A DNA stretch of 64,000 nt. Source: Luteibacter sp. Lineage in GTDB: Bacteria > Pseudomonadota > Gammaproteobacteria > Xanthomonadales > Rhodanobacteraceae. This document shows positions 8,820 through 42,354 of the stretch, in pieces. The translations under genes were made by a program, and so were the position numbers. The notes below the pieces were generated by a model. It was given only the letters and a program-made list of their open reading frames with translations. It was not told the origin of the DNA and ran no database searches. Location of the stretch: the NCBI RefSeq assembly GCF_035539195.1, contig NZ_DATLIW010000006.1, positions 41,734-105,733 on the forward strand, written 5' to 3'. Position 1 is the stretch's first letter; each line of letters begins with the position of its first letter.

Positions 8820-9879
8820 ATGAGGTCGCCGCGGCGCGATTCAAGGCGTCGCTGAGCAGTCCGGCGGTGGCTTGCACCACCGGGATCACCCGCTCATATG
8901 CCATACGCGTCGGTCCAATAACTCCGATCGCACCCAGCATGCGCCCGTTCGTGCCGTAGGTGGCGGTGACGATGCTGCAACCGTCCAGGGCCGAGAATCC
9001 GGACTCCTCGCCGATGAACAGCCGCACGCCAGGGGCCTTGACGCACATTTCCATGAGCTGAAGCAGGTCGCGCTTCTGCTGGAAAGCGTCGAAAAGATCG
9101 CGGAGCCGGTCGATATCGGCCAGCTCGGAATAACCCATCAGGTTGGTCTGGCCACTGACCAGCACGTCGTCCGCGTCCTCGTCGGAGCTGAACGAGGCTG
9201 TGGCCAGTTCGACCACCCCATCGAGCAGGCGATTGAGTTCGCCACCCGCCTCGCGCAGCTCGATGGCCAGATGCGCACGGATGTCCGCCAGGCGAAAACC
9301 GGCGAACTGAGCGTTGAGATAGTTGGCGGCCTGCTCCAGCTCGGCCGATTCGAGTGCCTTGGCGAGTTGGACGACCCGGTTCTGTACCTGGTTATCCGAG
9401 AACACCAGGATCACCAGCACCCGCGCATCGGGCAAATTGACGAAATCGATATGCCGCAGCGGAAAGTCGCCCTGGCGCGGCACGGTCACCACACCGGCGA
9501 AGTGAGTCATCGCCGAAAGCAGGTGGGACACGTTGCCGAGCAGGTCGCGCGTGGTCGTCTGGTGTGGCGGCAAGCCGCCCTGCAGGCGCGCCATCTCGTC
9601 GCGCGGCAGCGGCTTGAGTTCGAGCAGGCTGTCGACGAACAGGCGCAGGCCGCGCGGCGTCGGGATTCGTCCCGCCGAGGTGTGCGGCGAGGCGACCAGT
9701 CCGGCCTCTTCGAGGTCGGCCATGATGTTGCGGATGGTCGCCGGGCTGACTTCCAGACCGGACGACTTCGCCAGCGTGCGTGAGCCGACCGGCTCGCCGT
9801 CCGACAGGTATTGGGAGATCAGGGTACGCAGCAGCCGGCGCGCGCGTGCATCGATGTCGTGACCGGAAAACGGATTCAT
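8818..9879 (-). CDS. hrcA: heat-inducible transcription repressor HrcA
   Basis: 353 aa with an N-terminal winged helix (RARRLLRTLISQYLSDGEPVGSRTLAK...SPATIRNIMADLEEAGL) and HrcA C-terminal domain features. It heads the grpE-dnaK-dnaJ cluster. Confidence 0.93.
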   Translation of the reverse strand: MNPFSGHDIDARARRLLRTLISQYLSDGEPVGSRTLAKSSGLEVSPATIRNIMADLEEAGLVASPHTSAGRIPTPRGLRLFVDSLLELKPLPRDEMARLQGGLPPHQTTTRDLLGNVSHLLSAMTHFAGVVTVPRQGDFPLRHIDFVNLPDARVLVILVFSDNQVQNRVVQLAKALESAELEQAANYLNAQFAGFRLADIRAHLAIELREAGGELNRLLDGVVELATASFSSDEDADDVLVSGQTNLMGYSELADIDRLRDLFDAFQQKRDLLQLMEMCVKAPGVRLFIGEESGFSALDGCSIVTATYGTNGRMLGAIGVIGPTRMAYERVIPVVQATAGLLSDALNRAAATS

Positions 9880-9916
9880 GCGCGTGGGCGGGCCGGGGGT
9901 TGGTTCGTCGGGCTAT

Positions 9917-9946
9917 CAATAAGGTCTCGACGGCTCCGTTGCAAGT
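9917..9946 (-). promoter_or_regulatory. possible sigma32-type promoter upstream of hrcA
   Basis: The minus strand reads CTTGCAA-N14-CCTTATTG about 40 nt upstream of the hrcA ATG. The match to the -10 is weaker than at dnaK. Confidence 0.35.
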
Positions 9947-10010
9947 CTCGGCTTCTGCGACGCGCCTGCCGCTACAATCAGCGCGATTCCATCCGCCGCC
10001 ATCGGTAGCC

Positions 10011-11681
10011 ATGCTCACCTCGCTCTACGTCCGCCAGTTTGCCGTCGTCGAAGAAGCCGAGATCGCCTTTGGGCCCGGGCTCACCGTGGTCAGTGGCGAG
10101 ACCGGCGCCGGCAAGTCCCTCCTCGTGGACGCCCTCATGCTCCTGGCCGGCGCCCGCGCCGACAGCGGCATGGTCCGCTCCGGCAGCGATCGGGCCGAGC
10201 TGGCGGCGGAATTCGATCTCACCGGATTGCCCGAGGCCACCGCCTGGCTGCGCCAGGAAGAACTGGACGACGGCGAGACCTGCCAGCTGCGCCGCGTCAT
10301 CCGCGTCGAGGGCAGCTCGCGCGGCTGGATCAACGGTCGCCCCGCCAGCCTCGCGCAGATGTCGGCCCTGGCCGCGCTCATCGTCGAAATCCACGGCCAG
10401 CACGAACACCAGGCTCTGCTGTCGCGCCAGCACCAGATGGGCCTGCTCGACGCCTACGCCGGCAACGAGGCACTGCAGGCCAGCGTGCGCGACACGGCCA
10501 GGTCGTGGCGCGAGGCCGTTGCCCGCATCCGCGCCTTGTCAGGCGGCGACGATCGCGAGCGTCAGATCGAACTGCTCGCCCACGAACTGGAAGAACTGGA
10601 CCGCTGGGCACTCGCGCCTGCCGCGCTGGAAGAACTCGAAGCCCAGCATCGCCGGCTGGCCAACGCCGGCCGACTGGCCGAAGGCGCCAATGGCGTGGTC
10701 GAGATCCTCGACGGCGAAAGCGAGTTCGCCGTCGGCCGCGCCCTGCTGCGCGCCCACGCCGAGCTGTCCCGGCTGGCCGAACTGGACGCCTCCCTGGTGC
10801 CCACCCTCGAACTGCTCGACAGCGCGCAGATCCAGGTCGGCGAGGCCGTGGACGGTCTCGGCCGCTACGCGCAGGACGTGGAGCTCGATCCCGAGCGCCT
10901 GGCCGAGGTCGATACGCACCTCACCCACCTGCACGACCTCTCGCGCCGTTACCGGCTGCCGATCGAGGAACTGACGGTGAAGGCCGAGGAGATACGCGAG
11001 CGCCTGGCCGAACTCGAAGGCGCGGGCGATGCACTGGATCGTCTTGCCCATGAACGCGACCGCCTGCGCAAGGCCTACGACGAAGCGGCCGCCGCCTTGT
11101 CGGCCGCGCGTTCCGCCGCCGCCGGCCGCCTCGGCACCTCGGTCGCCGCGCTCATGGGCGAGCTCGGCATGGCCGGCGGTCGCCTGGAAGTCTCGCTGGA
11201 ACGGGTCGAAGGCGACGAGCCCGATCCGCAGGGTCGCGAGCGTTGCGAACTGCTGGTCAGCGCCAACCCGGGCCAACCGCCCCGCCCGCTGCGTAAGGTC
11301 GCCTCGGGTGGCGAACTGGCCCGCATCAGCCTGGCCATCGAGGTCGCCACGCTGGGCAACGACAACATCGGCTGCATGATTTTCGACGAAGTGGACACCG
11401 GCATCGGCGGCGCCGTGGCCGAAGTGGTCGGCCAGAAGCTGCGCGCGCTCGGCGAGCGGGTCCAGGTGATGTGCGTCACCCACCTGCCCCAGGTCGCCGC
11501 GCAAGGCCATGCGCATCTGCAGGTCGCCAAGGAAAGCGACGGCGAAGCCACCCGCACGCGCATCCACACGCTCGACGCCGCCGGCCGTCGCGACGAACTC
11601 TCGCGCATGCTCGGCGGCGTGGAAATCACCAAGGAAACCCGCGCCCACGCGAAGAAGATGCTCGACCGCGCCCAGGGCTGA
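10011..11681 (+). CDS. recN: DNA repair protein RecN
   Basis: From ORF 9780..11681(+). The conserved N-terminus MLTSLYVRQFAVVEEAEIAFGPGLTVVSGETGAGKS starts at ATG 10011. Walker A, a long coiled coil, the signature SGGELARISLAI and Walker B MIFDEVDTGIGG are present. Confidence 0.95.
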   Translation: MLTSLYVRQFAVVEEAEIAFGPGLTVVSGETGAGKSLLVDALMLLAGARADSGMVRSGSDRAELAAEFDLTGLPEATAWLRQEELDDGETCQLRRVIRVEGSSRGWINGRPASLAQMSALAALIVEIHGQHEHQALLSRQHQMGLLDAYAGNEALQASVRDTARSWREAVARIRALSGGDDRERQIELLAHELEELDRWALAPAALEELEAQHRRLANAGRLAEGANGVVEILDGESEFAVGRALLRAHAELSRLAELDASLVPTLELLDSAQIQVGEAVDGLGRYAQDVELDPERLAEVDTHLTHLHDLSRRYRLPIEELTVKAEEIRERLAELEGAGDALDRLAHERDRLRKAYDEAAAALSAARSAAAGRLGTSVAALMGELGMAGGRLEVSLERVEGDEPDPQGRERCELLVSANPGQPPRPLRKVASGGELARISLAIEVATLGNDNIGCMIFDEVDTGIGGAVAEVVGQKLRALGERVQVMCVTHLPQVAAQGHAHLQVAKESDGEATRTRIHTLDAAGRRDELSRMLGGVEITKETRAHAKKMLDRAQG

Positions 11682-12421: not shown

Positions 12422-14041
12422 ATGCGACTAAATGCCGTCTCCCGGTTCGCCGGCCCCCTGTTTGCCCTGGTCTACGGCGCCGCCTGGGTCCTGCTGTGGC
12501 CGACGGAACAACCTTACTGGGTGCTGCCGTTCGGCCTGCGCTTCGGCGCCCTGCTCCTCATGCGCACGCGCAACTGGTTCTGGATCCTCGGCGCCGAAAT
12601 CGTCGCCAGCGCATTCTGCGAATGGCGTAGCGGCCTGCCGATCGGCGGCGCCGGCTTCGTGCTGGGCGACGCCCCGGAACCGCTGATGGTCGCCGCGTGC
12701 CTGTGGCTATTGCGCCGGGCCCACTTGCACGCCAGCCTCAACACGCCCGAAGACGTCGCCCGCCTGCTGCTGTCGGCCATGGTCACGGCCACCGTCGCCA
12801 CCGCCGGCAACGCGGCGATGATGGCCTCCCTGCACCCCGCCGCGCCGGTGGAAATGCTCGGCACCACCTTCGGCAGCGACCTGCTCGGCAACTACCTCGG
12901 CGTGCTGCTGGTCGTCCCGGTGATGATCCTCATCTTCCGCGAGCGGCCCACCCAGTCGGCGCTGGCGGAGTTGCTGCTCGACGGGCTGCTGGTGATGCTC
13001 CCCTCGCTGGCGATCCTGGTGACGCTGGCCGAGTACTCGCCGCAGCCGCAGTTCGCCCGCGTGCTGTCGCTGGCACCGGTGCTGTTCTTCGCCTTCCGGC
13101 ACGGCTGGCGCGGTGCGGGCCTGGCCATGTTGATCACCAGCGTCGGGCTGAACGTCACCGAGGACATGATCGGCCGCGGCGCGCCGACGGCGGCCGCCCA
13201 TCTGTTCCTCGCCGTGGCCGGTACGGGCACCCTCATGCTCGGCGCGGCCACCGACGCCCTGCGCCGGAGCAGCGAGCGCGTGGCCCAGCAGAACACCCAT
13301 CTGGCGGCCGCCAACCAGCGCCTCGACCAGCTCGCCCGCCAGCTGCGGGACGCGGCCCGCGGCAACCTTCAGGCCGAAGAAGACCTGCGCAAGCACATGG
13401 CCGCGGAGCTTCACGACGAGCTGGGCCAGAACCTCACCGCCATCCAGACCCATCTGAAGCTCGCCCAGGCCCGGCTGGGCAGCGCCGGCCTCGACGACAT
13501 CGGCGCCTCGATCAACGGCATCCTCGGCCACATGCGCCGGGCCCTGCACAAGATGCTCGACAGCCTGCGCCCCTCCGTCCTCGACGAGTTCGGCTTGCTC
13601 AGGGCGCTCGACGAGGGCCCGGTCCGCGACATGCTGACCGCCGCCGGCATCCATTACGTAACCGACCTGCGGGGCGAGCCGAGGCTGCTCGACGATGAAA
13701 CCCTTACCGCGATCTACCGCGTCGTGCAGGAAAGTGCGACCAATGTGGTTCGCCATTCCGGGGCGAAGGAACTGAAATTGCGGCTGCGCATCGGACTGCG
13801 CGACAGCGGTCCGGTGGCCATCCTCGACATACGTGACGACGGTACCGGCCTGCCCGCCACACCCAGGCCAGTCCGCACAGACGGTGGCGGACGCGGCCTA
13901 CAGGGAATGAGCGACCGCATCACCGCTCTGGGCGGCATCTTCCGCATCCGTCCCGAGCCAATCGGATTACACCTTCGGGTGTTGCTTCGCAGCACAAGTA
14001 TCGGAACTCACATAGGAAATTTTCCGATACCGGGCCAGTGA
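12422..14041 (+). CDS. MASE1-domain sensor histidine kinase (UhpB-like architecture: MASE1 + HisKA_3 + HATPase_c)
   Basis: About 290 aa of 8 hydrophobic helices, then a coiled coil. The H-box is ELHDELGQNLTAI, the N-box is ESATNVVRHSGA, and the G-boxes are DDGTGLP and GGRGLQGMSDR. It is divergent from a LuxR-type regulator. Confidence 0.85.
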   Translation: MRLNAVSRFAGPLFALVYGAAWVLLWPTEQPYWVLPFGLRFGALLLMRTRNWFWILGAEIVASAFCEWRSGLPIGGAGFVLGDAPEPLMVAACLWLLRRAHLHASLNTPEDVARLLLSAMVTATVATAGNAAMMASLHPAAPVEMLGTTFGSDLLGNYLGVLLVVPVMILIFRERPTQSALAELLLDGLLVMLPSLAILVTLAEYSPQPQFARVLSLAPVLFFAFRHGWRGAGLAMLITSVGLNVTEDMIGRGAPTAAAHLFLAVAGTGTLMLGAATDALRRSSERVAQQNTHLAAANQRLDQLARQLRDAARGNLQAEEDLRKHMAAELHDELGQNLTAIQTHLKLAQARLGSAGLDDIGASINGILGHMRRALHKMLDSLRPSVLDEFGLLRALDEGPVRDMLTAAGIHYVTDLRGEPRLLDDETLTAIYRVVQESATNVVRHSGAKELKLRLRIGLRDSGPVAILDIRDDGTGLPATPRPVRTDGGGRGLQGMSDRITALGGIFRIRPEPIGLHLRVLLRSTSIGTHIGNFPIPGQ

Positions 14042-16766: not shown

Positions 16767-17161
<395 letters not shown>

Positions 17162-17171
17162 ATCGACGCTC

Positions 17172-17208
17172 GGGCCAAGGCTTAAACCCTTGGCCCGATT
17201 GCGTTTTT
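17172..17208 (+). terminator. rho-independent terminator of ssrA
   Basis: GGGCCAAGG-CTTAAAC-CCTTGGCCC followed by GATTGCGTTTTT. Confidence 0.6.
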
Positions 17209-17434
17209 AGCGCCGCATTTCGATGACCCAAACGACCCTTCGAGGTATCGTTTGAGGTATCGATTTTGCCGAAACCCTATTTTCTTCAGCGCCCGTCCGG
17301 CATCTAACGTCAGACCCGCCCAATCGTTCCCTGTTCGCAAAGGAATGACTACGAAAGGGGCAACGCGTCTTTAGTCGTCAAGTTCTGCGGCCCCTCGCCG
17401 CGACGGGGCCGCAGAACCTGACGACCACACGGCC

Positions 17435-17893
17435 CTACCGACCGTCCTTTTTTGCGGATCCCGCCGCGATGCGCTTGGTCTCCTCGTAGACGTCCTTTGC
17501 TTCCTTCAACGGCGCGGAGTTGCCACAGCTATCCACGAAGTCCATTTCCGGGGAATGCTGAACGAAAAGAAGATAGGGAACATTGAGGTCCATCGGAAAG
17601 CGTGAAGATGTGTTGACCGAGAACAGCCATAACCTCTTCGCCGGCTTACCCTTGATGACTTCCCGTGCCTTCACGATGTAAATCGTATAGCTGGACATGC
17701 CATCGTCGTTGTCATCTGGCACGTCATGGCTCTCGATCGCTGTGCCGACCATCACAATGGGTGTCTTGGCGAACTCTTCCGCTACCTTGGGGTTCCCGTC
17801 CAGACAGGCCGCTGACGCGCCCCCTCCCCAGAATAAAAGGAGTCCAAATATGGCAACGGATAGACCAGCGCGACGGACAGATGTTGCTGTCAT
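17435..17893 (-). CDS. secreted hypothetical protein (TIMP/NTR-like pattern, see findings)
   Basis: From ORF 17435..18250(-). The start is placed at the internal Met that gives a textbook signal peptide (MTATSVRRAGLSVAIFGLLLFWGGGASAA|C). A 13-bp-stem hairpin (17382-17417) follows the stop. Confidence 0.6.
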   Translation of the reverse strand: MTATSVRRAGLSVAIFGLLLFWGGGASAACLDGNPKVAEEFAKTPIVMVGTAIESHDVPDDNDDGMSSYTIYIVKAREVIKGKPAKRLWLFSVNTSSRFPMDLNVPYLLFVQHSPEMDFVDSCGNSAPLKEAKDVYEETKRIAAGSAKKDGR

Positions 17894-18301
17894 AGAGTGA
17901 CCTTGACGTCGTCCCACTTTTTCGGCACCGCTGAAAACTGGAGTTAAGGTCGCCTCATCCACAGGCCCACGGGGTCGACAGAAGAAGATGACGGATATTA
18001 TGGAGGCTCGCTGAATCGACCTTACAAAGTGCGCGCAAGCAAACGCTGCGCAAGATTCCAAACGCTTCATTTCCCTGTCCCCTGTTTGCCCACCGTCGTC
18101 GCGCGAGCCGCGTGTGCATTCTGTGATTATCCGGCGTGCCAGGGCATATCTTTCCGGAGCTTGCCGGTACACGACATTTAGCGGCATAAGTGGACCGCTA
18201 AAAACAAAGTCAATTTTGCAAACACTCGCCCGCCGCGTGACCGTGTGCATACGACCGTGGCACGTAAGCTGCCTGATGAGTGTCTGCCGAGTTGCAAAAA
18301 T

Positions 18302-18811
18302 CTATTTGGTGACCGACTTTATAAAGTCTTCCAGCCTCCCCGGTTCAGGGAAATCGGCTAGCGTGAGCTGTCGCAGGTTTGTACCGGAATCTTGAAGGAC
18401 TCGATCAAGCTCGTCAGCCACGGTCTGCGTCGCGCCGACGATAGTGACGTCGTGTTCCGCGAGTACTGCGATGGTTTGAGAACCGTTGTACGCAACCCAT
18501 TCCACCGCGCCCTGAACCGACCAGCCCGGAATGTAGAGAAACGAGTCCCAGTCAAACGAAAACGATACGGGATCCGGCTGAGGCATCTCTGACCCAGCGT
18601 AGCCGCAAATCCACCAACAAGAGTCCTCGCTCGCTTCTCGAAGCGCTTCCCAGAGCAGCTTTGGCATGGCGTGCCACTCATACTTATCACGGTCAAGAAC
18701 TGCGCCTCGCCAGCTTTTTCTGGCGAATCCGTCCTGTGCGCCCTCGTCCTCGACGAAAAAAGATCGTCGAGCCTCGTCAATCTTCATTGGCCTCGGAGAA
18801 TTCATACTCAC
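18302..18811 (-). CDS. putative cognate immunity protein of the Rhs-core toxin (hypothetical, acidic, Trp-rich)
   Basis: 169-aa ORF whose ATG overlaps the toxin stop as ATGA (18808-18811). It has no signal peptide or TM helix. The position and coupling are typical of polymorphic-toxin immunity genes. Confidence 0.55.
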   Translation of the reverse strand: MSMNSPRPMKIDEARRSFFVEDEGAQDGFARKSWRGAVLDRDKYEWHAMPKLLWEALREASEDSCWWICGYAGSEMPQPDPVSFSFDWDSFLYIPGWSVQGAVEWVAYNGSQTIAVLAEHDVTIVGATQTVADELDRVLQDSGTNLRQLTLADFPEPGRLEDFIKSVTK

Positions 18812-19707
18812 GATCCCCCTGGAGCTTCAGATTTTGGCTGAGGTTGAGGTGGCGGTGGCGGCTTCGGAAAACGAACGGTGCCGATGATTTTTCCGCTCGG
18901 ATCGGTGATCTTGATGCTCGGCGTCCCTTGTGGATACTGACTCTTTGTACTGTTGTGTAAATCAGCGACGCCGCCATCGGACAAGACCTTCACTTTCGCG
19001 CTGCCCTTGTCTTCCTCCGTGCCGTCGATTTTGTCCCAAGCCTCCTTCTCCCCTCCGGCCACTCCTTCACGCTCCCCTTTTTTTCCTGCTGTCCCGACCG
19101 CGGGACTGGTGCCTTCAAAGATCTTGTCTTTCGCCTCTCCCGACGTCGGTGCTTCATTGAAAACGATAGAGCCCGTGCCTGGTTGCTGACGGTTTACCTG
19201 GTCGACGATCATGTAAGTGGCGTAGCCAGCACCCGCTGCCACAATGACCGCGCCGCCTACATAGACGACCTCAGCCGCGCAAGGCGCACACTTACCCGTC
19301 GGGTCAGACAAACTGACCGGGTTGTTGTTGACGTATGCGTACCTGTTCCCATCAAACACATTTCCCGCAGTGGGAACAATTGGGTCAACGGACAAGAACC
19401 GGCCGATTGCGGGATCGTAGTATCGGGCTTGCATGTAGACAAGCCCGGTGTCCGGATCACCGACGTGGCCGGTATATCCTGGGCCAGCCGCTTGGCTTCC
19501 GATGCTGTTCTGACCGAAGGGCCGATAGTCGGCTTGTGAGGTTATGTTGCCCGCGGCGTCGGCAGTTGCGAGTACGGACCCTAGCGAGTCACTGTAGTAA
19601 TAGGTAACGCTTCTCGATTGCGCGCTTACTGAGCCACTAACGCACACGGCGACTAGTGCGGCCCCTCTCGCCAGAAGTCGAAGTCTGAGAACCAGAGGGT
19701 TCATCAT
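18808..19707 (-). CDS. signal-peptide-bearing RHS repeat-associated core domain protein with variable C-terminal domain
   Basis: The signal peptide is MMNPLVLRLRLLARGAALVAVCVSGSVSA|QS. YD repeats follow (VTYYYSDSLGSVLATADAAGNITSQADYRPFGQ). The Rhs core is GYTGHVGDPDTGLVYMQARYYDPAIGRFLSVDP...NRYAYVNNNPVSLSDPTG. A 161-aa non-conserved C-terminal region completes the protein. Confidence 0.85.
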   Translation of the reverse strand: MMNPLVLRLRLLARGAALVAVCVSGSVSAQSRSVTYYYSDSLGSVLATADAAGNITSQADYRPFGQNSIGSQAAGPGYTGHVGDPDTGLVYMQARYYDPAIGRFLSVDPIVPTAGNVFDGNRYAYVNNNPVSLSDPTGKCAPCAAEVVYVGGAVIVAAGAGYATYMIVDQVNRQQPGTGSIVFNEAPTSGEAKDKIFEGTSPAVGTAGKKGEREGVAGGEKEAWDKIDGTEEDKGSAKVKVLSDGGVADLHNSTKSQYPQGTPSIKITDPSGKIIGTVRFPKPPPPPQPQPKSEAPGGS

Positions 19708-20379
19708 TTACCCTTGATGTTTAAAAGTTGATGACCCGAGGTCTCAACGCGATGCACCGAAGTGCTGGTGCGCAGCAAAAGGGCGTATGACTGACTTAAT
19801 CGGGCAAACGGACGCCATTTGTTACGCCCGGAGACACGACCTCCTGAAACGGGCGCTATGCACATCGCAGCGGCTCGTTGTAAGCCAAGACTCGAGTCCG
19901 ACGGTGAAAAACACCCTGGCTCTCACTCAGGATGATGATGCATACAAGGGCTTGTCAGTCGCGTCGAGGACTTCATCCACTTCGCGGGTCAAGCAGTAAA
20001 ACTCCGGCCGACGAAGAGAAATCGCCCTCACGACGCAGCACCTCTCTCCGGATGCTGCCGAGACTTCGCCCAACACCGTATGTCGCGCAGGAAACGAAAA
20101 ACCCGTCAACTCCGGCGAGCCGACGACCTGACGTTCGTACATTCCGTTGCCCCTTCTTCTGGCGCGCTGCCAGGTCGCAAAAACCTACGCCCCCCACAAG
20201 AATGTGTCAACACACTCCATCAAGTCGCACATGATCACTCCGAAAGTCGGAGTGCTCGCCAGTGCGCTCTTCGAATTGCGCCGATATGCGCTGCTGATCG
20301 GCCGTCATTTAGACGAGCCCCCCACCAGCCCGAGCATCAATTTGAATCGACGGAATCTGGATGTCGCTAGGAATTCTCT

Positions 20380-20946
20380 TCAGGATGAATGGCCCGCAGG
20401 ATCTTCTTTCTTGAACGACAAGGATTTCAGAAGCTGCTGATAGATCTTCCGCACCTTCGGTACCTCGTCGGCCGGCGCCACCATGATGGCTTGGCCGTCC
20501 GCAAACACGGTCCGCACGGGGGCGCTGAACGAGACAATCTCGTTCACCATCTCCTGGTGTTCCACCGTTCCTCTGCGCTGCTCTAACCATGCCTGCGTGC
20601 CATCCAACTCGACAACGGTCGAACCAGGTGGGCGAGTTGGCTTTTCGTCTTCTTCTACCCGCCATCCGACCAAAATGACGATGCAGCTTGAGTGGGACCC
20701 AACCGGGAAGATGTCGAACCCGTGGAAAGGGGCGTCATCTGCGACACCACCCCACCCCGTCTCCCCATTAGGAACGCTGATGACCATGTGATAGTCGTCA
20801 TTCACCACGCGACCTCGATACGCGACCCCCGTTCCCGGTGACCCCGTAGTGAAGTCCGCGCACGTCCGGACAGATTGATTCTCGCTTCCCCATACCGGCG
20901 AGAGCGTGGATGCGACAACGAGCACTGCCAGGGCGTATAGGCGCAT
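20380..20946 (-). CDS. secreted hypothetical protein
   Basis: 188-aa ORF with the signal peptide MRLYALAVLVVASTLSPVWG|SE. No recognisable motif was seen. Confidence 0.6.
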   Translation of the reverse strand: MRLYALAVLVVASTLSPVWGSENQSVRTCADFTTGSPGTGVAYRGRVVNDDYHMVISVPNGETGWGGVADDAPFHGFDIFPVGSHSSCIVILVGWRVEEDEKPTRPPGSTVVELDGTQAWLEQRRGTVEHQEMVNEIVSFSAPVRTVFADGQAIMVAPADEVPKVRKIYQQLLKSLSFKKEDPAGHSS

Positions 20947-21306
20947 GTCTATATCTCAGATCAGAAGCTACTTATACCGATCCATCAGGAAACCAGGGGA
21001 GCGCCGATCCTCACCCGCGCAAGATCGGCTTGCTTGGTCGTTGGGGTAGTGGAAAGCCGAGCCGCAACGTTACTGGGCAAAGTTAAAGGAGACAGCGAAT
21101 GGGTGTCTGTAGGGGAAGTCCTACATTTCCGAATAATACGATGGCTATCGCAAGCGATCAGGCAAGCGGATCGCGTGGATTTTTAGACAACCCGGGCATC
21201 CCGAGACAGCGCCGCTCCCTGGGCGACCCTCCCGTCAACTGATCCTCCGGCGGCGCCCGAACTGCATCACGCTTCAATGCCGGGCAGTAGCCGGAATGCA
21301 CCTGAA

Positions 21307-22014
21307 TCATCCGCGCCCCGCACCCGCCCCCGGCAACACATAAAACAACACAGCGAAGTAATGCAAAACACTTCCCGCCAACACAAACAAATGCCACAGC
21401 GAATGGTGAAACGGCAACCGCTTTGCCAGATAGAACGGAACACCCGCCGTATAGGCAACACCGCCCGCCACCAACAGCATCAGGCCGTCCTTCGGCACGT
21501 GACCTGCCAGCGGCTGGAACGTGGCGATCGCGCCCCATCCCATGGCGACGTACAGGAACACGGCCGCATGGTGATAACGCCTCAAGATGCCTAGCTCGAG
21601 CACCGTGCCGGCGATGGCAAGCAGCCAAATCGCCCCGAACAAGACAAAGCCCCACGTTTCGGGCATCGCGATAAGCGCGAAGGGGGTATAGGTGCCCGCG
21701 ATCAGCCAGTAGATGCCCACATGGTCGAGCGTCCGAAGAAAGCTCTGGGCGCGGTGATTCTTAAGGGTGTGATAAAGGGTCGAAGCGGTAAAGAGGAAAA
21801 TCAGTGTCGCCCCATAGAGCGCACTGGCGAACACCGCAAGAGGACCACCATACGAGGTCGCTTTCGCCACCAGGGCGACGAGCCCGGCGACGCTGAGCCC
21901 GACGGCCAGCCCATGGACGATGCAACTACCCAACTCGTCGATGCGTGCATAGGGAACAGAAGCGAGGTCCGGGTCCGTAGCCATCTGGGAATCCACTCGA
22001 AGGCAAGGGCCCAT
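21307..22014 (-). CDS. hemolysin III / PAQR family channel protein
   Basis: Seven hydrophobic helices with the family motifs LDHVGIYWLIAGTYTPF and HSLWHLFVLAGSVLHY. The alternative start MATDPDL at 21984 is equally possible. Confidence 0.85.
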   Translation of the reverse strand: MGPCLRVDSQMATDPDLASVPYARIDELGSCIVHGLAVGLSVAGLVALVAKATSYGGPLAVFASALYGATLIFLFTASTLYHTLKNHRAQSFLRTLDHVGIYWLIAGTYTPFALIAMPETWGFVLFGAIWLLAIAGTVLELGILRRYHHAAVFLYVAMGWGAIATFQPLAGHVPKDGLMLLVAGGVAYTAGVPFYLAKRLPFHHSLWHLFVLAGSVLHYFAVLFYVLPGAGAGRG

Positions 22015-22123
22015 CGTGCCAGCGTGGTATTGCAGTTGTAGCTTGACAAACCGTCCGCCCCCACTTATTCATTGCCGCCGAGCCTTTACGCTGCAACCAA
22101 GCATGGATTAGGGGAAAAGGAAG

Positions 22124-24175
22124 ATGCATCGGTCCGTATGGTTGTACCTCTCTTTAGGCCTTCTTGCGTTATGCCTGAGCACAGGCGCCCTCGCCCAGGA
22201 TGCGTGCTCGTTTAAATCCGGTGGCGATAAGTCCACCGGACTGACCTTCGGAGCCGGCATAACATCGCCCGGCCTGCCCGCCCGGAGCGCCATTGCGCAA
22301 TTGAAGGACATCGCCACCGCGAAGGGGTTCGATGTCGACCAGGGTAACGTCCAGGGGTCACAGGGATCGCTGACCATTCATCAGAAAGCGAGCGGAACCG
22401 CGCGAGGCTTTCCGCTCTTCATCACGGCCACCGATGCTGGCGCGGTCAATCTCGACGTGACGCTTCCCGCAGGCATGATGGTAAAACCGGACGATATGCG
22501 CGGGGCGATATGCGGCATGCTCGCGCAGGTGAAAAACTCCGGTGGCGCCGTCGCGGCCGCCGCACCGGATAGTCACGCCCCGACCGCCAGCGCCCTGCCC
22601 AGCGCGGCGATGCTATTCGGGCCGGTGGACTCCACGAAGCTCTGCATGACGAACTTCACGACGGCGCTGAACGACGACGAGGGCAGCGCGTACTCCACGT
22701 GGACCATGGCACCCAGCATCGATCCGCACGATGCGATCGCGAGCATGAAGAAGTTCATCGCTGCGATGAAGGACTGGGAGGTTCTTGTTGAGGACTATCA
22801 CGGCCATCAGGGCGAGTTGACCGTCGCGATGAAGAGTATCGATGCGGTCAGGGATTCGGGCTACAGCTTTAACGGTCCAGATAAACGAGGTTTCCCCTTC
22901 CACGTCACGGTGGACGGTGATCTTGCCGCGATTTCCTTCGTGGCCCAGGTAAACCCGGATCAGACGAATATCAACGCCGCTCATATGGAATACCTGGCCT
23001 GCGGCCTGCTCGCTGGGGCCACCCACTCCGAGTTGCCGCCGGATCTGTCGAGAACGGGTGCGGGATCGCTTCCCGCTCAATCGTCGTCCCGCCTAGCGAA
23101 CCTGTTCAAGACCCGCAAGACACTCGTTAAAGAGATAACGCAACAGGCCGCCGACAAACTGAAGGCCAGGCAGGACGCGAGTGCGACGCTGTATCGAAGG
23201 GCGCTTGCCTCCGGCAAGGCCGTCGTTGTCATGCCGATGGTGGATATCGGGGAGAAATACAAGAATGCGGGCCTGCCGACACCGGGTACGGACAGCTATC
23301 CCGATTACAGCCTGGACCGGAACTCCGCCATCATCTGGCAGAAAGACGGCGATCCAAAGAGCATCCTCAAGGTCGGCTATCCGCAATCCATGGATCGTGT
23401 CGGACTGCACGGCTACCTGACAGGCATCGATGCCGGCAAGTCGTATTACATGTTTTACATCGTCGATCCGGGTACGTATTCGCTTGTTGGCAATACCTAC
23501 AAGTTGCTTCGAACGAACTTTCCGGACATGAGCGCGAAGCAGTGGCAAGCGAAGCCGAAGATCGGCCTCGCCTCACTGACCGCAACGAAGGAGAAGGAGT
23601 TCTACCAGACACAGGAATGGTTCGCTGCGCAATATGGTAGTAAGACCGTCTTCGACGGCACCTACTGCGACATGATGATGGTCGGTGGCGCGGGCGGCGG
23701 TGGCTGCGCACACATGTCCGAGGCCTCTCACAGCGAAACCGTGACGACCGATCCGGGCGGTTGGCGTAGCATCCTGCACGCAAAAATGGTCGACGGCGTC
23801 GCGGTGGCAACCAAGCTCACCCGCCCCTTCGCAAAGGTCAGCGTAGGTGCCGGCGAAGCGGTTGTCGTCGATGGCTTTTATAACGACAGCAATAACACCG
23901 CCCTGAACACGGATGGCTGCAATCAGGCCGACTCGAACCTGGTGAACTGCGCAATCAAGACGTTCACGCTGCATCGCATTCCCTCCCGCGTCGGCGACCT
24001 CAACGACGGTCCGGGCAACGCCATGGATTCGCTGTATCTGATCAACGATCGCCTGCCTTTCAGCAAGGACATCATCAAGACTCGCCAGCTGAATGTTTTG
24101 GCGAGCCCCGCAGATGCCAAGATCGGCACGTTCGAAGCGGGGTGGGCGAAGCCGTACTCCTTGTCAACTCAGTAG
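22124..24175 (+). CDS. large secreted hypothetical protein (683 aa) with duplicated N-terminal domain
   Basis: The signal peptide is MHRSVWLYLSLGLLALCLSTGALA|QD. The long uninterrupted ORF sits in a lower-GC context. There is an internal repeat (aa about 52-136 versus about 201-298). It is divergent from the PAQR gene. Confidence 0.75.
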   Translation: MHRSVWLYLSLGLLALCLSTGALAQDACSFKSGGDKSTGLTFGAGITSPGLPARSAIAQLKDIATAKGFDVDQGNVQGSQGSLTIHQKASGTARGFPLFITATDAGAVNLDVTLPAGMMVKPDDMRGAICGMLAQVKNSGGAVAAAAPDSHAPTASALPSAAMLFGPVDSTKLCMTNFTTALNDDEGSAYSTWTMAPSIDPHDAIASMKKFIAAMKDWEVLVEDYHGHQGELTVAMKSIDAVRDSGYSFNGPDKRGFPFHVTVDGDLAAISFVAQVNPDQTNINAAHMEYLACGLLAGATHSELPPDLSRTGAGSLPAQSSSRLANLFKTRKTLVKEITQQAADKLKARQDASATLYRRALASGKAVVVMPMVDIGEKYKNAGLPTPGTDSYPDYSLDRNSAIIWQKDGDPKSILKVGYPQSMDRVGLHGYLTGIDAGKSYYMFYIVDPGTYSLVGNTYKLLRTNFPDMSAKQWQAKPKIGLASLTATKEKEFYQTQEWFAAQYGSKTVFDGTYCDMMMVGGAGGGGCAHMSEASHSETVTTDPGGWRSILHAKMVDGVAVATKLTRPFAKVSVGAGEAVVVDGFYNDSNNTALNTDGCNQADSNLVNCAIKTFTLHRIPSRVGDLNDGPGNAMDSLYLINDRLPFSKDIIKTRQLNVLASPADAKIGTFEAGWAKPYSLSTQ

Positions 24176-24741
24176 CGGCGAGTCTGAGTCACGCAGAAAG
24201 AATCGCTTGCCGAGGCGAGGGGTTCTTTCATGTTTGGAGGGAGGGCCTCTGTGGATCGGCGCGGCCGCGCTTGTAGTCACGAGTCTGGTTAGACCAACCG
24301 AGCGGGTCATCGGGGAGGTCCGAGAAATGCGAAGCCTCATGCACGCCGTCGTCATATATTTGTCTTCCGCATGGCCGATCGTGTCGACGAAGTAGCCGCG
24401 TGAGGCTGCGTGCGTATTGAAGCCACTCGGCGGCCTCGTTCATCAGGTCTTTCTGCGCTCTCGCAACCATCCACGCGCGGACTTCGAAACTTCGGAGCCA
24501 TACGACGCGAAAGCGTCTCGGTCGAAGGCCTTCGGCGAGGTAGACGCACGGCTACGCGTCCGACCTTACGCGCTTGTAGCCGATCGAACGCTGCACAACT
24601 TTCCGTTTGCAAACGACGGATTAGCCAACCTCTTGCCGGAAAAGCGCCCGCCTTGTGTGGTGTACGGCCATGTTCGGCCCGGTATCGTTCTCGTGGGTGA
24701 TGGCTCGGCCACACCCGTCCTTCCACCTACTGGAGCACGCC

Positions 24742-24918
24742 ATGTACGCACTCGTCCGCCCGACCCTGATCGTTGCCGCCCTGCTTGCCCTCTCCTGCGG
24801 TGTCGCCGTGGCCAAGACGACGGCGCACACCGCCGCCGGTGCCAGCACGCAACAGACCCCGCATGCCGTCGACGCCGTACGTTGCAAGAATCCGGCGGAA
24901 TGCAGCGTTCCGCGTTAA
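24742..24918 (+). CDS. possible small secreted peptide (58 aa)
   Basis: An internal Met of ORF 24655..24918 gives MYALVRPTLIVAALLALSCGVAVA|KTT..., followed by a 34-aa mature part ending in a CKNPAEC loop. No homology could be judged. Confidence 0.35.
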   Translation: MYALVRPTLIVAALLALSCGVAVAKTTAHTAAGASTQQTPHAVDAVRCKNPAECSVPR

Positions 24919-25937
24919 GGCGGGGTCGCCTGCGCACCGCGCCGACCCGCGCGCATGGGAAGTCTTGCGCCGACCATGAGCGCCGCTGAAAGGAACAGTG
25001 CCAGGACCACCTGGCACTGGATCATGGCCGGATCGAGCAAGGCCGTGCCGGTAGCCGCCAGGGCGATGCTTGCGCCCATGCCAGCGATCGCCGTGCCGTG
25101 CCACCCATGGCGCACCGCCAGGACCAGAACGGGCAACAGCAAGGCCAATCGCGCCGCCTGACGGAGACCATCGTGCTGCGTCGCCAGTGCAAGCCAGGCG
25201 AGGCCGAACAAGACCGGGACCACCCACAACACGACGTCGCGAAGCAGTGGGCTGCCCCAGAGGGACGCCCCGGTCGCTTGCACGTCGCCGCCGGCGCGCT
25301 CGCGCAAGGCGAGAATCGTCGGCGTAAGCGTCAGGGCACCGAGATAGGCGCCCAACACATAAGCCCAGAAATACGTGGCGACCGAAATATCCGGCCAGGC
25401 CTCCGGCGAATGCAGCAACGCCGTCATCAGCGTCACGACCGTCTTTACCGCCGTCAGCACCGCGCAGCCGAGCGTCGCGGCCAGGACCATGCCCATTCTC
25501 AGCTGTCCATCCGCCGTATAGAGGCTCCATCGCTGCCGCAGCGGCTGGACCCAGGCCATGCACAGCACGATCATCGGCACCGAGGCGGAGACTGCCCACG
25601 CGAGGCCGAACTGCGGCATGCACAGCACCGCGTTTTCAATCATGGGAAGCGCTTCGCCGGCGGCGAGCGCAGGCCAGTAGCGCCGTGGCATGAGCAGGAG
25701 GCAGGCCAGGCGAAGGCCGGCCGTGAGTATCCAGTGGGAGAAGGTCACATGGCGTGTGACCTCGTAGCAAGCCGCGTACGCGGCGGCTACCGCAAGGTGC
25801 TGGCCCCATGCATTCCATCGCGCGGCGCGTCCGTTCACTGCTTCCCCTGGCGGGTGGTCTGGAGGCCGAAGGATGCCATGAACCTGACCGGCCACGCCGT
25901 CCGAAACTGCGGCACTGCCGACAAAGGAGAACACCAT
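24915..25937 (-). CDS. stand-alone MASE1-like integral membrane sensor domain protein
   Basis: 340 aa, all hydrophobic helices with no output domain. It is clearly paralogous to the N-terminus of the kinase at 12422. Compare SHWILTAGLRLACLLLMPRRYWPAL with YWVLPFGLRFGALLLMRTRNWFWIL, and LAVRHGWHGTAIAGMG with FAFRHGWRGAGLAMLI. Confidence 0.7.
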   Translation of the reverse strand: MVFSFVGSAAVSDGVAGQVHGILRPPDHPPGEAVNGRAARWNAWGQHLAVAAAYAACYEVTRHVTFSHWILTAGLRLACLLLMPRRYWPALAAGEALPMIENAVLCMPQFGLAWAVSASVPMIVLCMAWVQPLRQRWSLYTADGQLRMGMVLAATLGCAVLTAVKTVVTLMTALLHSPEAWPDISVATYFWAYVLGAYLGALTLTPTILALRERAGGDVQATGASLWGSPLLRDVVLWVVPVLFGLAWLALATQHDGLRQAARLALLLPVLVLAVRHGWHGTAIAGMGASIALAATGTALLDPAMIQCQVVLALFLSAALMVGARLPMRAGRRGAQATPP

Positions 25938-41506: not shown

Positions 41507-42354
41507 TCATCCTGGGACGAAGACCACCCTTGCCTTTCCGCTGTCGGCATCCCAGGCCGTCTGGACGTCCGAGAGCGGCAGCGCTCGCGTGGCAATCTTC
41601 AGGTTGGCGGGCATCGCCGCGGCAAAGACCTGCCCCGCGGCTGCAAGAAGATCCGGCAACGGAACGCTCTTGACGCCACTGCCCATCAGCACGATGGCCG
41701 ACGACCTCAGCGCCGCGCCCGGCAAGCGGATATCGCCGCCGCTGGCACTGCCCACCTGCACGAAACGCACCGGGCGCGCGTCGTCGACGGCTTTCGCAAT
41801 CGCGACGATGATCGTCTCGGCGCTCTTTCCCCACAGGTAATCGACAACCACGTCGATCCCTTCCTCGAACTGCTGCCGGAGCGCTGCCTCGAATCGCGAC
41901 ACGCCATCGGCATCGCTTCCGTCCAGTTGGAACGGAAGGACGATATCGGCGCCGATTGCCTCGACCGATGCCAGCGCCGCGGCGTCGCGAGCGGTCGCGA
42001 TGACCTTTCCCGCGCCGAGGTGCTTTGCCAGCTGCACGGCCAGCCGTCCCGCGATACCCGTCGCGCCGTTGATCAACACGGTATCGCCGCGCTTGAGCTG
42101 CGCACGGTAGACGAGCGCGGCCCACGCCGACATGCCCGGGTTTGCCAGTGCGGCGGCGGTAACGTCGTCGAGACCGTCCGGCACCGGAATGCAGAAGCCG
42201 GCACGTACGCGCGTGACCTCGCACGCGACCGGGTGAAGTGAGTGAGCGGCGAGGCGGTGACGGCGATCAGTTCCTCTCCCTCGACGGCGGCGGGAGCGTC
42301 GATATCGGCGAACACGGGCGGCTTACCCGCCTCGAACATGACGGCTGCCTTCAC
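41507..42354 (-). pseudogene. decayed zinc-type alcohol dehydrogenase / NADPH:quinone oxidoreductase gene (frameshift plus internal deletion)
   Basis: The N-terminal piece (GTG 42354; VKAAVMFEAGKPPVFADIDAPAAVEGEELIAVTASPLTHFTRS...) is in one frame. The C-terminal piece (..CIPVPDGLDDVTAAALANPGMSAWAAL...INGATGIAGRLAVQLAK...) is in another. VPDGL occurs at about codon 57 instead of about 120-130, so the catalytic-domain core is missing. Confidence 0.7.

Follow-up and report, generated by a model that had tools for sequence, protein, structure and literature searches.

The 64,000-nucleotide stretch of Luteibacter sp. DNA analysed here (positions 41,734 to 105,733 of contig NZ_DATLIW010000006.1; hereafter the window) carries on its minus strand an open reading frame (ORF) of 299 amino acids (aa), at 18808..19707, whose product is probably the tip subunit of a two-gene, or split, Rhs/YD-cocoon polymorphic toxin of Rhodanobacteraceae and other Gammaproteobacteria, standing here alone with its immunity gene. 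As we reconstruct it, the full system would comprise three genes. The first would encode a Sec-exported protein of ~1,750–2,100 aa made of an N-terminal region and a YD shell, followed by an Fn3-like array in the place of the Rhs core. The second, usually abutting the first or overlapping it by a few bases, would encode the tip, in which a leader of its own precedes the final two YD hairpins, the core plug and a polymorphic toxin domain; the third would confer immunity. The window would hold the second and third genes only, which form a solitary cassette within a low-GC islet that borders ssrA. Compared with Rhs and Tc-type cocoon toxins the arrangement is new: the cocoon is divided at a novel position, and each of its halves is predicted to be exported by the Sec pathway.

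A complete gene with a predicted leader, two YD hairpins and an Rhs core

The tip ORF is complete. It opens with two consecutive start codons (ATG ATG), directly preceded by a Shine-Dalgarno (SD)-like AAGGG and an in-frame TAA, as read from the sequence, and it ends with the stop codon at 18808–18810. No sizeable ORF lies 5' of it up to ~20380, and a tblastn search of the window with a 1,976-aa shell protein found no YD-coding remnant upstream of the tip (best E = 0.07, far away). The in-frame TAA and the lack of an upstream YD match indicate that no hidden or frameshifted rhs body precedes the gene. A tblastn search with the tip protein revealed no second tip copy in the window. An exact look-up of the tip protein returned no record, and an identical locus in an independent assembly (L091; related loci and homologous proteins are cited by L and P numbers) was reached via P0310. 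A first-pass annotation of this DNA had described the ORF as a miniature Rhs of four parts (signal peptide, about two YD repeats, Rhs core and variable C-terminus) without a shell, and had named an upstream in-frame rhs body among the findings that would overturn it. The 299-aa ORF and its four-part architecture are as described, on the minus strand, which that annotation left unstated, and no such body is present.

The N-terminus of the tip, MMNPLVLRLRLLARGAALVAVCVSGSVSA|QS, has the layout of a Sec leader processed by signal peptidase I (SPI): three arginines, a hydrophobic core and VSA|QS. From these features an SPI-type signal peptide is predicted at aa 1–29 (19621..19707), with cleavage at VSA|QS. 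The motif that starts the first YD strand was located in 114 homologues, of which 107 have a leader layout (K/R, a hydrophobic core and often A-x-A) directly before that strand; A-x-A itself is found in the leader of 65 homologues with the motif. These features and their conservation are consistent with export of the tip, which is predicted to follow the Sec/SPI route, and the signal peptide of the first-pass annotation is thus upheld by a layout that is conserved family-wide. A lipoprotein leader (VAVC22) was considered and rejected, as the valine at -1 is non-canonical and the cysteine is not conserved in homologues.

The mature N-terminus (aa 30–66, SVTYYYSD...DYRPFGQ; 19510..19620) consists of two YD-type β-hairpins, in which AlphaFold2 (AF2) places strands at residues 36–39, 45–49 and 55–58 with a predicted local distance difference test (pLDDT) score of ~80. 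This YD part is short and degenerate: it stays under the Pfam thresholds (RHS_repeat, PF05593, 14.3 against 22; TEN_YD-shell, PF25023, 12.2 against 50), and the NCBIfam RHS_core model NF041261 gives 25 against 2000 for the tip. The Rhs-associated core (aa 61–138; 19294..19527) is recovered by TIGR03696 (Rhs_assc_core) with 79 bits for a cut-off of 32.5 (2.8e-22), over profile positions 1–75 of 76. The hidden Markov models (HMMs) to which the first-pass annotation had pointed therefore bear out the core and not the RHS_repeat. A Foldseek search with the tip model gave weak Rhs and teneurin matches to the N-terminal part.

In an alignment of 121 sequences, D108 (19384–19386) is invariant, and D135 (19303–19305), P136 and G138, which belong to the motif P130-xxxx-DPTG138, are conserved in at least 90%. 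When the tip is modelled alone, the core reaches a pLDDT of only 42–60 despite this 121-sequence alignment; the toxin domain models well. The canonical motif of the core aspartyl autoprotease is PxxxxDPxG[LWF] (bioRxiv 10.1101/2024.02.26.582050), whereas in the tip P130xxxxDPTG is followed by K139, and R or K occupies the position after DPxG in 83 of 98 family tips. This basic residue is usually accompanied by a Cys pair at the core-toxin boundary (RCxxC, KCLEDLC, TCDxxSC), which may reflect a disulfide loop or a different cleavage chemistry.

Between the window tip and one solitary relative, the ratio of non-synonymous to synonymous substitution rates (dN/dS) is ~0.10, with dS saturated; in the same pair it is 0.12 over the leader and N-domain and 0.06 over the C-terminal part. 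The low ratio indicates that the genes are maintained: the two solitary copies compared are under purifying selection.

The tip starts where separate shell genes stop

In relatives, the tip is often preceded by a separate shell gene. Among the 66 tips with enough upstream sequence for ORF analysis, 27 (~40%) lie directly behind a same-strand YD ORF of >900 aa, with a leader and no core motif, or are arrayed behind one; ~60% of the tips with known upstream sequence are solitary. The complete shell ORFs among these loci are usually 1,750–1,980 aa long and consist of a signal peptide and YD repeats, without a core. They give RHS_repeat matches and, near the C-terminus, weaker Fn3-like matches (ChitinaseA_N, fn3, Y_Y_Y), and their sequence matches solved Rhs and teneurin-like shells. 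By sequence reading, the YD part ends '...DFIYLGNKMIARKS' and is directly followed by the Fn3-like repeats; 385–831 residues (median 622) lie past the junction motif in the 42 shells where it was found. The shell family has at least 595 proteins, and of the best 120, 118 are without the core motif and two are fused Rhs.

The split point can be placed on a fused form. Luteibacter sp. OK325 encodes a signal-peptide-bearing fused Rhs of 1,632 aa (L078), of which residues 43–1351 are covered by a shell of the same genome (L072) and residues 1352–1459 by the tip that adjoins this shell. The window tip aligns to the fused protein with 53% identity, V34 being placed on V1352. As the shell ends at 1351 and V34 falls on V1352, the mature N-terminus of the tip starts exactly where shells stop. 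At L078:1996-10276 the fused gene is followed by a classical leaderless orphan (9212-10276), and the OK325 genome therefore has fused, split (L072) and orphan forms together.

The order shell, tip, immunity recurs in distinct genera. Complete genomes of Dyella, Rhodanobacter and Frateuria have the tip gene right behind the shell gene, with a 4-bp overlap in two and a 14-bp gap in the third; a small gene lies 3' of the tip in two of the three, and no other conserved neighbour and no type VI secretion system (T6SS) was found at these three loci. Further shell-tip loci are present in Luteibacter (L025, L028, L034, L049, L054, L056 and L072). Stenotrophomonas maltophilia has a shell of 1,776 aa with an Fn3 tail, a 290-aa tip that carries a toxin of the same family as the window tip, and an immunity gene. 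Among plasmids, tblastn matched 1,330 generic Rhs cores, and of these the Alteromonas match alone was examined further: on the conjugative plasmid pAMEDUM8_300 of Alteromonas mediterranea (L092, 133394-140793), a leader-bearing shell gene of 1,328 aa overlaps a leader-bearing tip gene of 249 aa. The tail of this shell is a Cys-rich domain of ~115 aa, not an Fn3 array, and an orphan 'polymorphic toxin type 10' gene paired with Imm27 lies behind the split Rhs.

Tandem arrangements were also seen. At L044:59-10971 (Rhodanobacter caeni), L036, L013, L015, L038 and L081, one shell is followed by two or three tips; at L044 and L036 every tandem tip visibly has its own signal peptide, so that they look like alternative tips ready for export rather than leaderless orphans.

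A large family with constant N-termini and variable C-termini

A homology search with the tip gave 1,152 matches, and the statements made here on the family and its domains refer to the best 120 of these (P0001–P0120). All 120 are 167–483 aa long (median 309) and are conserved only over the N-terminal ~45%; their C-termini include HNH, HNH_5, phage lysozyme, peptidase M91, NucA/NucB, GH-E, LHH, EndoU, Ntox21 and Tox-REase-7 domains. In species-representative genomes (one per species) 580 related stretches were found, the best 80 of which belong to Rhodanobacter, Luteibacter, Dyella, Frateuria, Fulvimonas, Oleiagrimonas or unclassified Lysobacterales; a single genome contributes up to six loci to this set of 80. 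The family is found mainly in Rhodanobacteraceae, and also in Stenotrophomonas, Alteromonas and Shewanella, where a tip is present too. Outside the subclade of the window tip, solitary and shell-linked tips are intermixed in the N-domain tree. Database names are generic, 'RHS repeat protein', 'YD repeat-containing protein' or 'hypothetical' for the shell and 'RHS repeat-associated core domain-containing protein' for the tip; the tip family is large and apparently undescribed.

These data bear on the choice left by the first-pass annotation between a new kind of Sec-exported mini-Rhs and a recombination product that had captured a signal peptide. The former is backed by the >1,150 relatives, the best 120 of which share the same plan, whereas a one-off recombination product fits neither these relatives nor a dN/dS of ~0.1 between two solitary copies. 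The absence of a shell is true of the tip polypeptide and not of the system: because relatives have a separate adjacent shell gene with its own leader, split from the tip at the tip's mature N-terminus, the tip is best read as a subunit of a two-part Rhs and not as a shell-less Rhs.

The toxin module and its candidate immunity gene

The variable C-terminus of 161 aa, which the first-pass annotation had treated as one part, is present and falls into three. The first (aa 139–168; 19204..19293) opens the toxin module with K139 and the Cys140/Cys143 pair (aa 139–143, 19279–19293) and continues with a Gly/Ala-rich hydrophobic helix; the hydrophobic stretch spans ~aa 146–168, with a Kyte-Doolittle hydrophobicity of 1.79 over 19 aa, and AF2 models a helix at 153–173. 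At least two cysteines occur within 30 aa after the DPxG motif in 70 of 98 tips, and such pairs behind the core fit an oxidising compartment.

The second part is a C-terminal toxin domain of ~100 aa (aa 184–280; 18868..19158); its AF2 scores, averaged over blocks of 10 residues, are mostly 86–95, with one block at 65. An exhaustive search with a profile of six sequences found the domain in 41 proteins, always at the extreme C-terminus: RHS-repeat proteins of 764–1,596 aa, other leader-bearing tips and the shell-linked S. maltophilia tip. In most of the distant members read, the domain comes after a hydrophobic stretch rich in Gly and Ala. The ~100-aa domain is a genuine polymorphic-toxin module. 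It matches no Pfam or NCBIfam family even at E ≤ 10, and in a Foldseek search of the PDB nothing passed E ≤ 0.001 (best, the Plk4 polo box, E = 0.2). A likeness to barnase/BECR RNases, considered for the helix-then-sheet layout, is unsupported by the fold search and is not claimed. A word-index homology search with the C-terminal 160 aa gave no match though the 97%-identical P0001 was in the database, and negatives of that tool with short or low-complexity queries are untrustworthy.

The third part is a Pro-rich tail (aa 281–299; 18811..18867). At least six prolines are present in the last 25 aa of 31 of 98 tips, across unrelated toxin types, and such tails (PPPPPPP...) on otherwise unrelated toxins hint at a common tail function.

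A candidate immunity gene (18302..18805, minus strand) starts 3 bases past the tip stop codon and encodes 167 aa from ATG 18805 (SD GGGGGA); the NCBI call is 161 aa from ATG 18787. Its product is 66% and 45% identical to those of the genes directly 3' of the two closest tips and tracks the divergence of the toxins, with a weak similarity (E = 0.02) to the S. maltophilia counterpart. It matches no Pfam or NCBIfam family even at E ≤ 10, and a single-sequence AF2 model has a pLDDT of 51. The protein has no signal peptide, which suggests that the toxin would act in the cytoplasm. The pair formed by the tip and 18302–18805 has the hallmarks of a polymorphic toxin locus: a constant N-terminal part, a hypervariable C-terminal toxin and a co-varying downstream immunity gene. 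The first-pass annotation, which had read the C-terminus simply as variable, had overlooked this gene, the hydrophobic helix, the lysine after DPTG and the low-GC islet next to ssrA in which the pair lies.

Relation to known toxin systems

Tc toxins have a two-chain YD cocoon (TcB and TcC), in which the C subunit brings the core/aspartyl protease and a variable toxin that is enclosed in the cocoon, and a single B subunit can be armed with different C subunits. The split Rhs is similar to the Tc BC subcomplex (Photorhabdus TcdB2-TccC3, Yersinia entomophaga YenB-YenC1/C2) in that the cocoon is made of two polypeptides, the small one with the core and the toxin. However, TcC holds a large share of the shell (an Rhs part of ~650–700 aa, roughly half of the cocoon), whereas the Rhs part of the tip has only ~110 aa; moreover, both partners of the split Rhs have Sec leaders, the large subunit ends in an Fn3 array, and no TcA-like injector is encoded nearby. 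Unlike in Tc loci, an immunity gene lies behind the tip, and the targets are therefore likely to be bacteria. No Tc genes were seen at the loci examined, and the tip is not a member of TcC: the resemblance is functional.

The nearest experimental case is probably Bcn-A of Xanthomonas perforans (GenBank AF454545.2), which requires both the RHS-family ORFA (1,398 aa) and ORF4 (290 aa); ORF4 starts with a signal peptide and has hydrophobic helices beginning at aa 148, and ORF5, directly behind it, confers immunity (PMC7259588). Bcn-A activity is found in the supernatant, mostly above 100 kDa, and is lost in a mutant of xpsD (type II secretion); the authors assigned the toxic role to ORFA and an accessory or processing role to ORF4, and reported no Rhs core in ORF4 (PMC7259588). 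X. perforans belongs to the same bacterial order as the window, and in size and layout ORF4 and ORF5 match the 299-aa tip (hydrophobic from ~aa 146) and its immunity gene of 161–167 aa. Bcn-A differs by two further small ORFs (ORF2 and ORF3) between ORFA and ORF4.

Homology of Tc BC with Rhs, and cleavage after DPxGL, are both described in bioRxiv 10.1101/2024.02.26.582050. With single-chain Rhs effectors (T6SS effectors linked to PAAR, VgrG or an adaptor, and the E. coli RhsA type) the tip shares the TIGR03696 core, the conserved aspartates, the polymorphic C-terminal toxin and the downstream immunity gene; it differs from them by the absence of a shell, by a Sec leader at its N-terminus and by the K after DPxG, and no PAAR, VgrG or Hcp gene was seen in the stretches examined. 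Like orphan rhs-CT cassettes, which are sometimes arrayed behind a main gene (L044, L036, L078), the tip is a short gene encoding the end of the core and a toxin, followed by immunity. Classical orphans, however, have neither a start codon nor an export signal and are held to depend on recombination, whereas the tip family has both, with purifying selection in the two solitary copies compared.

Bacillus subtilis WapA and bacterial teneurin-like proteins (PMC13018210) also have a Sec leader, a YD shell around a C-terminal toxin and an immunity gene, without a dedicated injection machine; those are single chains of >2,000 aa, and no split form is described there. In the sections of Zhang et al. 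2012 (PMC3482391) drawn on here, RHS repeats are listed among Sec/type II secretion system (T2SS)-exported toxins, MafB is presented as a leader joined to a constant N-domain and a variable toxin, and a split Rhs is not described. The tip resembles MafB as a short, lineage-expanded polymorphic toxin of that same layout, which those sections class as Sec/T2SS-exported; its constant domain is an Rhs plug and not MafB-N, and a matching shell protein exists. Full-text literature searches for split or bipartite Rhs returned nothing relevant.

Proposed mechanism and alternatives

How a solitary tip would act can be outlined as follows. The tip would be exported by Sec and its leader cut at VSA|QS; in the periplasm its hairpins and core would complete a shell whose gene lies elsewhere in the genome, so that the hydrophobic toxin module is shut inside the cocoon, and the core, through D108 and D135, would cut after DPTG-K139. 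The loaded particle would then leave the cell, probably through the type II system, and serve as a large bacteriocin, either diffusible or bound to the surface; the Fn3 array would bind the target, the hydrophobic helix would bring the ~100-aa toxin domain over the target inner membrane, and kin cells would be guarded by the cytoplasmic immunity protein. We infer the activity of the toxin and its site in the cytoplasm, and likewise, here partly from X. perforans Bcn-A, in-trans assembly with a shell, self-cleavage and export by the type II system. The wider proposal, which we make tentatively and with some doubt, is that a shared shell/Fn3 carrier without a core takes up dispersed Sec-exported tips in trans in the periplasm, which would allow many toxins per shell without DNA rearrangement, and that the resulting particle of >200 kDa is released by the type II system in the manner of Bcn-A. 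On this wider proposal, many of the 'short RHS repeat-associated core' proteins that are at present taken for dead fragments would be active ammunition.

Several points weigh against the split-toxin reading and the mechanism built on it. No shell gene was found in the 64-kb window by tblastn with the shell protein. The subclade of the window tip (WIN, L001–L005), which has a long branch, is solitary in all three of its contexts, namely the window, L001–L003 and L004–L005, the latter two being other, unrelated housekeeping contexts; a wholly solitary subclade on a long branch suggests that a life independent of the shell is possible. With K139 in the place of L, W or F, self-cleavage is not assured. 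The stretch at aa 146–168 could be a stop-transfer segment, which would hold the toxin domain in the cytoplasm of the producer. The assignment of Bcn-A ORF4 as a tip is taken solely from its published description. Finally, no sigma-70-like promoter was matched upstream of the tip, in a scan that was uninformative and is not used as evidence.

The foremost alternative, which we consider rather unlikely, is that the tip is an autonomous mini-toxin: it would reach the periplasm by its signal peptide and work without a shell, its YD/core part serving as a pre-toxin, self-cleaving or secretion-recognition module comparable to Neisseria MafB-N, and would be released by type II secretion, vesicles or lysis. 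The solitary majority of tips with known upstream sequence (~60%) and the entirely solitary subclade of the window, in housekeeping or islet contexts, speak for it, as does the purifying selection on solitary copies, N-domain included; the hydrophobic helix of the toxin module could itself mediate membrane entry. Yet the tip N-domain is precisely the piece that is absent from shell genes, it models poorly alone, and solitary and linked tips form no separate clades overall. To our knowledge, every solved structure of an Rhs, Tc or teneurin protein has its core within the shell. The one experimental analogue, Bcn-A, also requires a large RHS protein.

A stored cassette is distinctly less probable still. 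Here the gene pair would be a silent orphan rhs-CT/immunity module, active only after homologous recombination behind a shell-linked tip, as in the classical orphan model of short Rhs proteins, with the conserved N-domain coding sequence as a possible homology arm. The tandem tip arrays behind shells (L044, L036) would agree with such storage, short Rhs proteins are regarded in a 2024 survey as unexpressed recombination fragments and substrates (bioRxiv 10.1101/2024.02.26.582050), and the uninformative promoter scan found no consensus upstream of the tip. However, a start codon and a signal peptide are retained in the window tip and in almost every relative inspected, unlike in the leaderless L078:9212-10276; the SD-like AAGGG precedes the window tip, dN/dS is 0.12 across the leader-containing part in the two solitary copies, and the immunity gene must be expressed anyway.

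An assembly, frameshift or annotation artefact, in which a full-length rhs gene was broken by a sequencing error, can be dismissed, given the in-frame TAA directly upstream and the lack of YD coding potential upstream in any frame, the identical gene in the independent assembly (L091), and the same boundaries in hundreds of relatives.

Implications of the proposed split Rhs toxin

The accepted picture of an Rhs toxin is one giant chain, delivered for the most part by the type VI system; among the best 120 shell relatives, however, the split form outnumbers the fused form by 118 to 2. If the split-toxin reading is correct, Gram-negative bacteria would have a route for Rhs toxins through Sec and probably type II secretion, the cocoon could be closed after export, and toxins could be swapped at the protein level, as in TcB/TcC, though here in conflicts between bacteria. 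The genetically puzzling X. perforans Bcn-A, which bears on the ecology of tomato bacterial spot, could be reinterpreted with ORF4, and not ORFA, as the carrier of the toxin. The analysis also defines a new toxin domain of ~100 aa and an immunity family. These hypotheses can be tested directly in soil bacteria that grow in culture (Luteibacter, Dyella, Rhodanobacter), as well as in Stenotrophomonas maltophilia.

Genomic setting in the window

The tip/immunity pair lies in a low-GC accessory islet (17162..24500), with a GC content mostly of 0.54–0.61 against 0.65–0.72 in most of the flanks. The islet is bordered by the tmRNA gene ssrA (16767..17161, plus strand, ARAGORN), given here for context only. 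Islet proteins fall in clusters of 1–5 members, whereas flanking housekeeping proteins fall in clusters of 55–171 Luteibacter members; the Fur, SmpB, HrcA and RecN of the window belong to clusters of Luteibacter proteins of at least 90% identity, which places the DNA in Luteibacter.

The first-pass annotation had reported no vgrG, PAAR, hcp or tc-toxin gene nearby, which agrees with the stretches examined: no PAAR, prePAAR, vgrG, hcp or EagR gene was found among the ORFs at 14–25 kb, six of which were scanned with Pfam, the remaining window not being scanned for T6SS genes, and none was seen around ten related loci.

No att-type direct repeat of the ssrA 3' end bounds the islet, only chance 18-mers being found, and the ORFs inspected include no integrase. 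Placed right after ssrA, the ~7.5-kb islet looks like an old or decayed ssrA-targeted island. Beside the toxin pair it holds a small ORF with an internal leader-like stretch (17435–18250, minus strand), called as a 152-aa protein in L091 and belonging to a rare cluster, and a 188-aa ORF with a leader-like N-terminus, also from a rare cluster (20380–20946, minus strand). A 683-aa ORF at 22124–24175 (plus strand) has a signal-peptide-like N-terminus and no Pfam or NCBIfam match; it forms a singleton cluster and is kept only in the identical locus L091. The region is bracketed by genes for MASE1-type membrane sensors (12422–14041, plus strand; 24915–25937, minus strand), the MASE1 assignment being confirmed on the equivalent L091 genes, one of which is fused to a histidine kinase.

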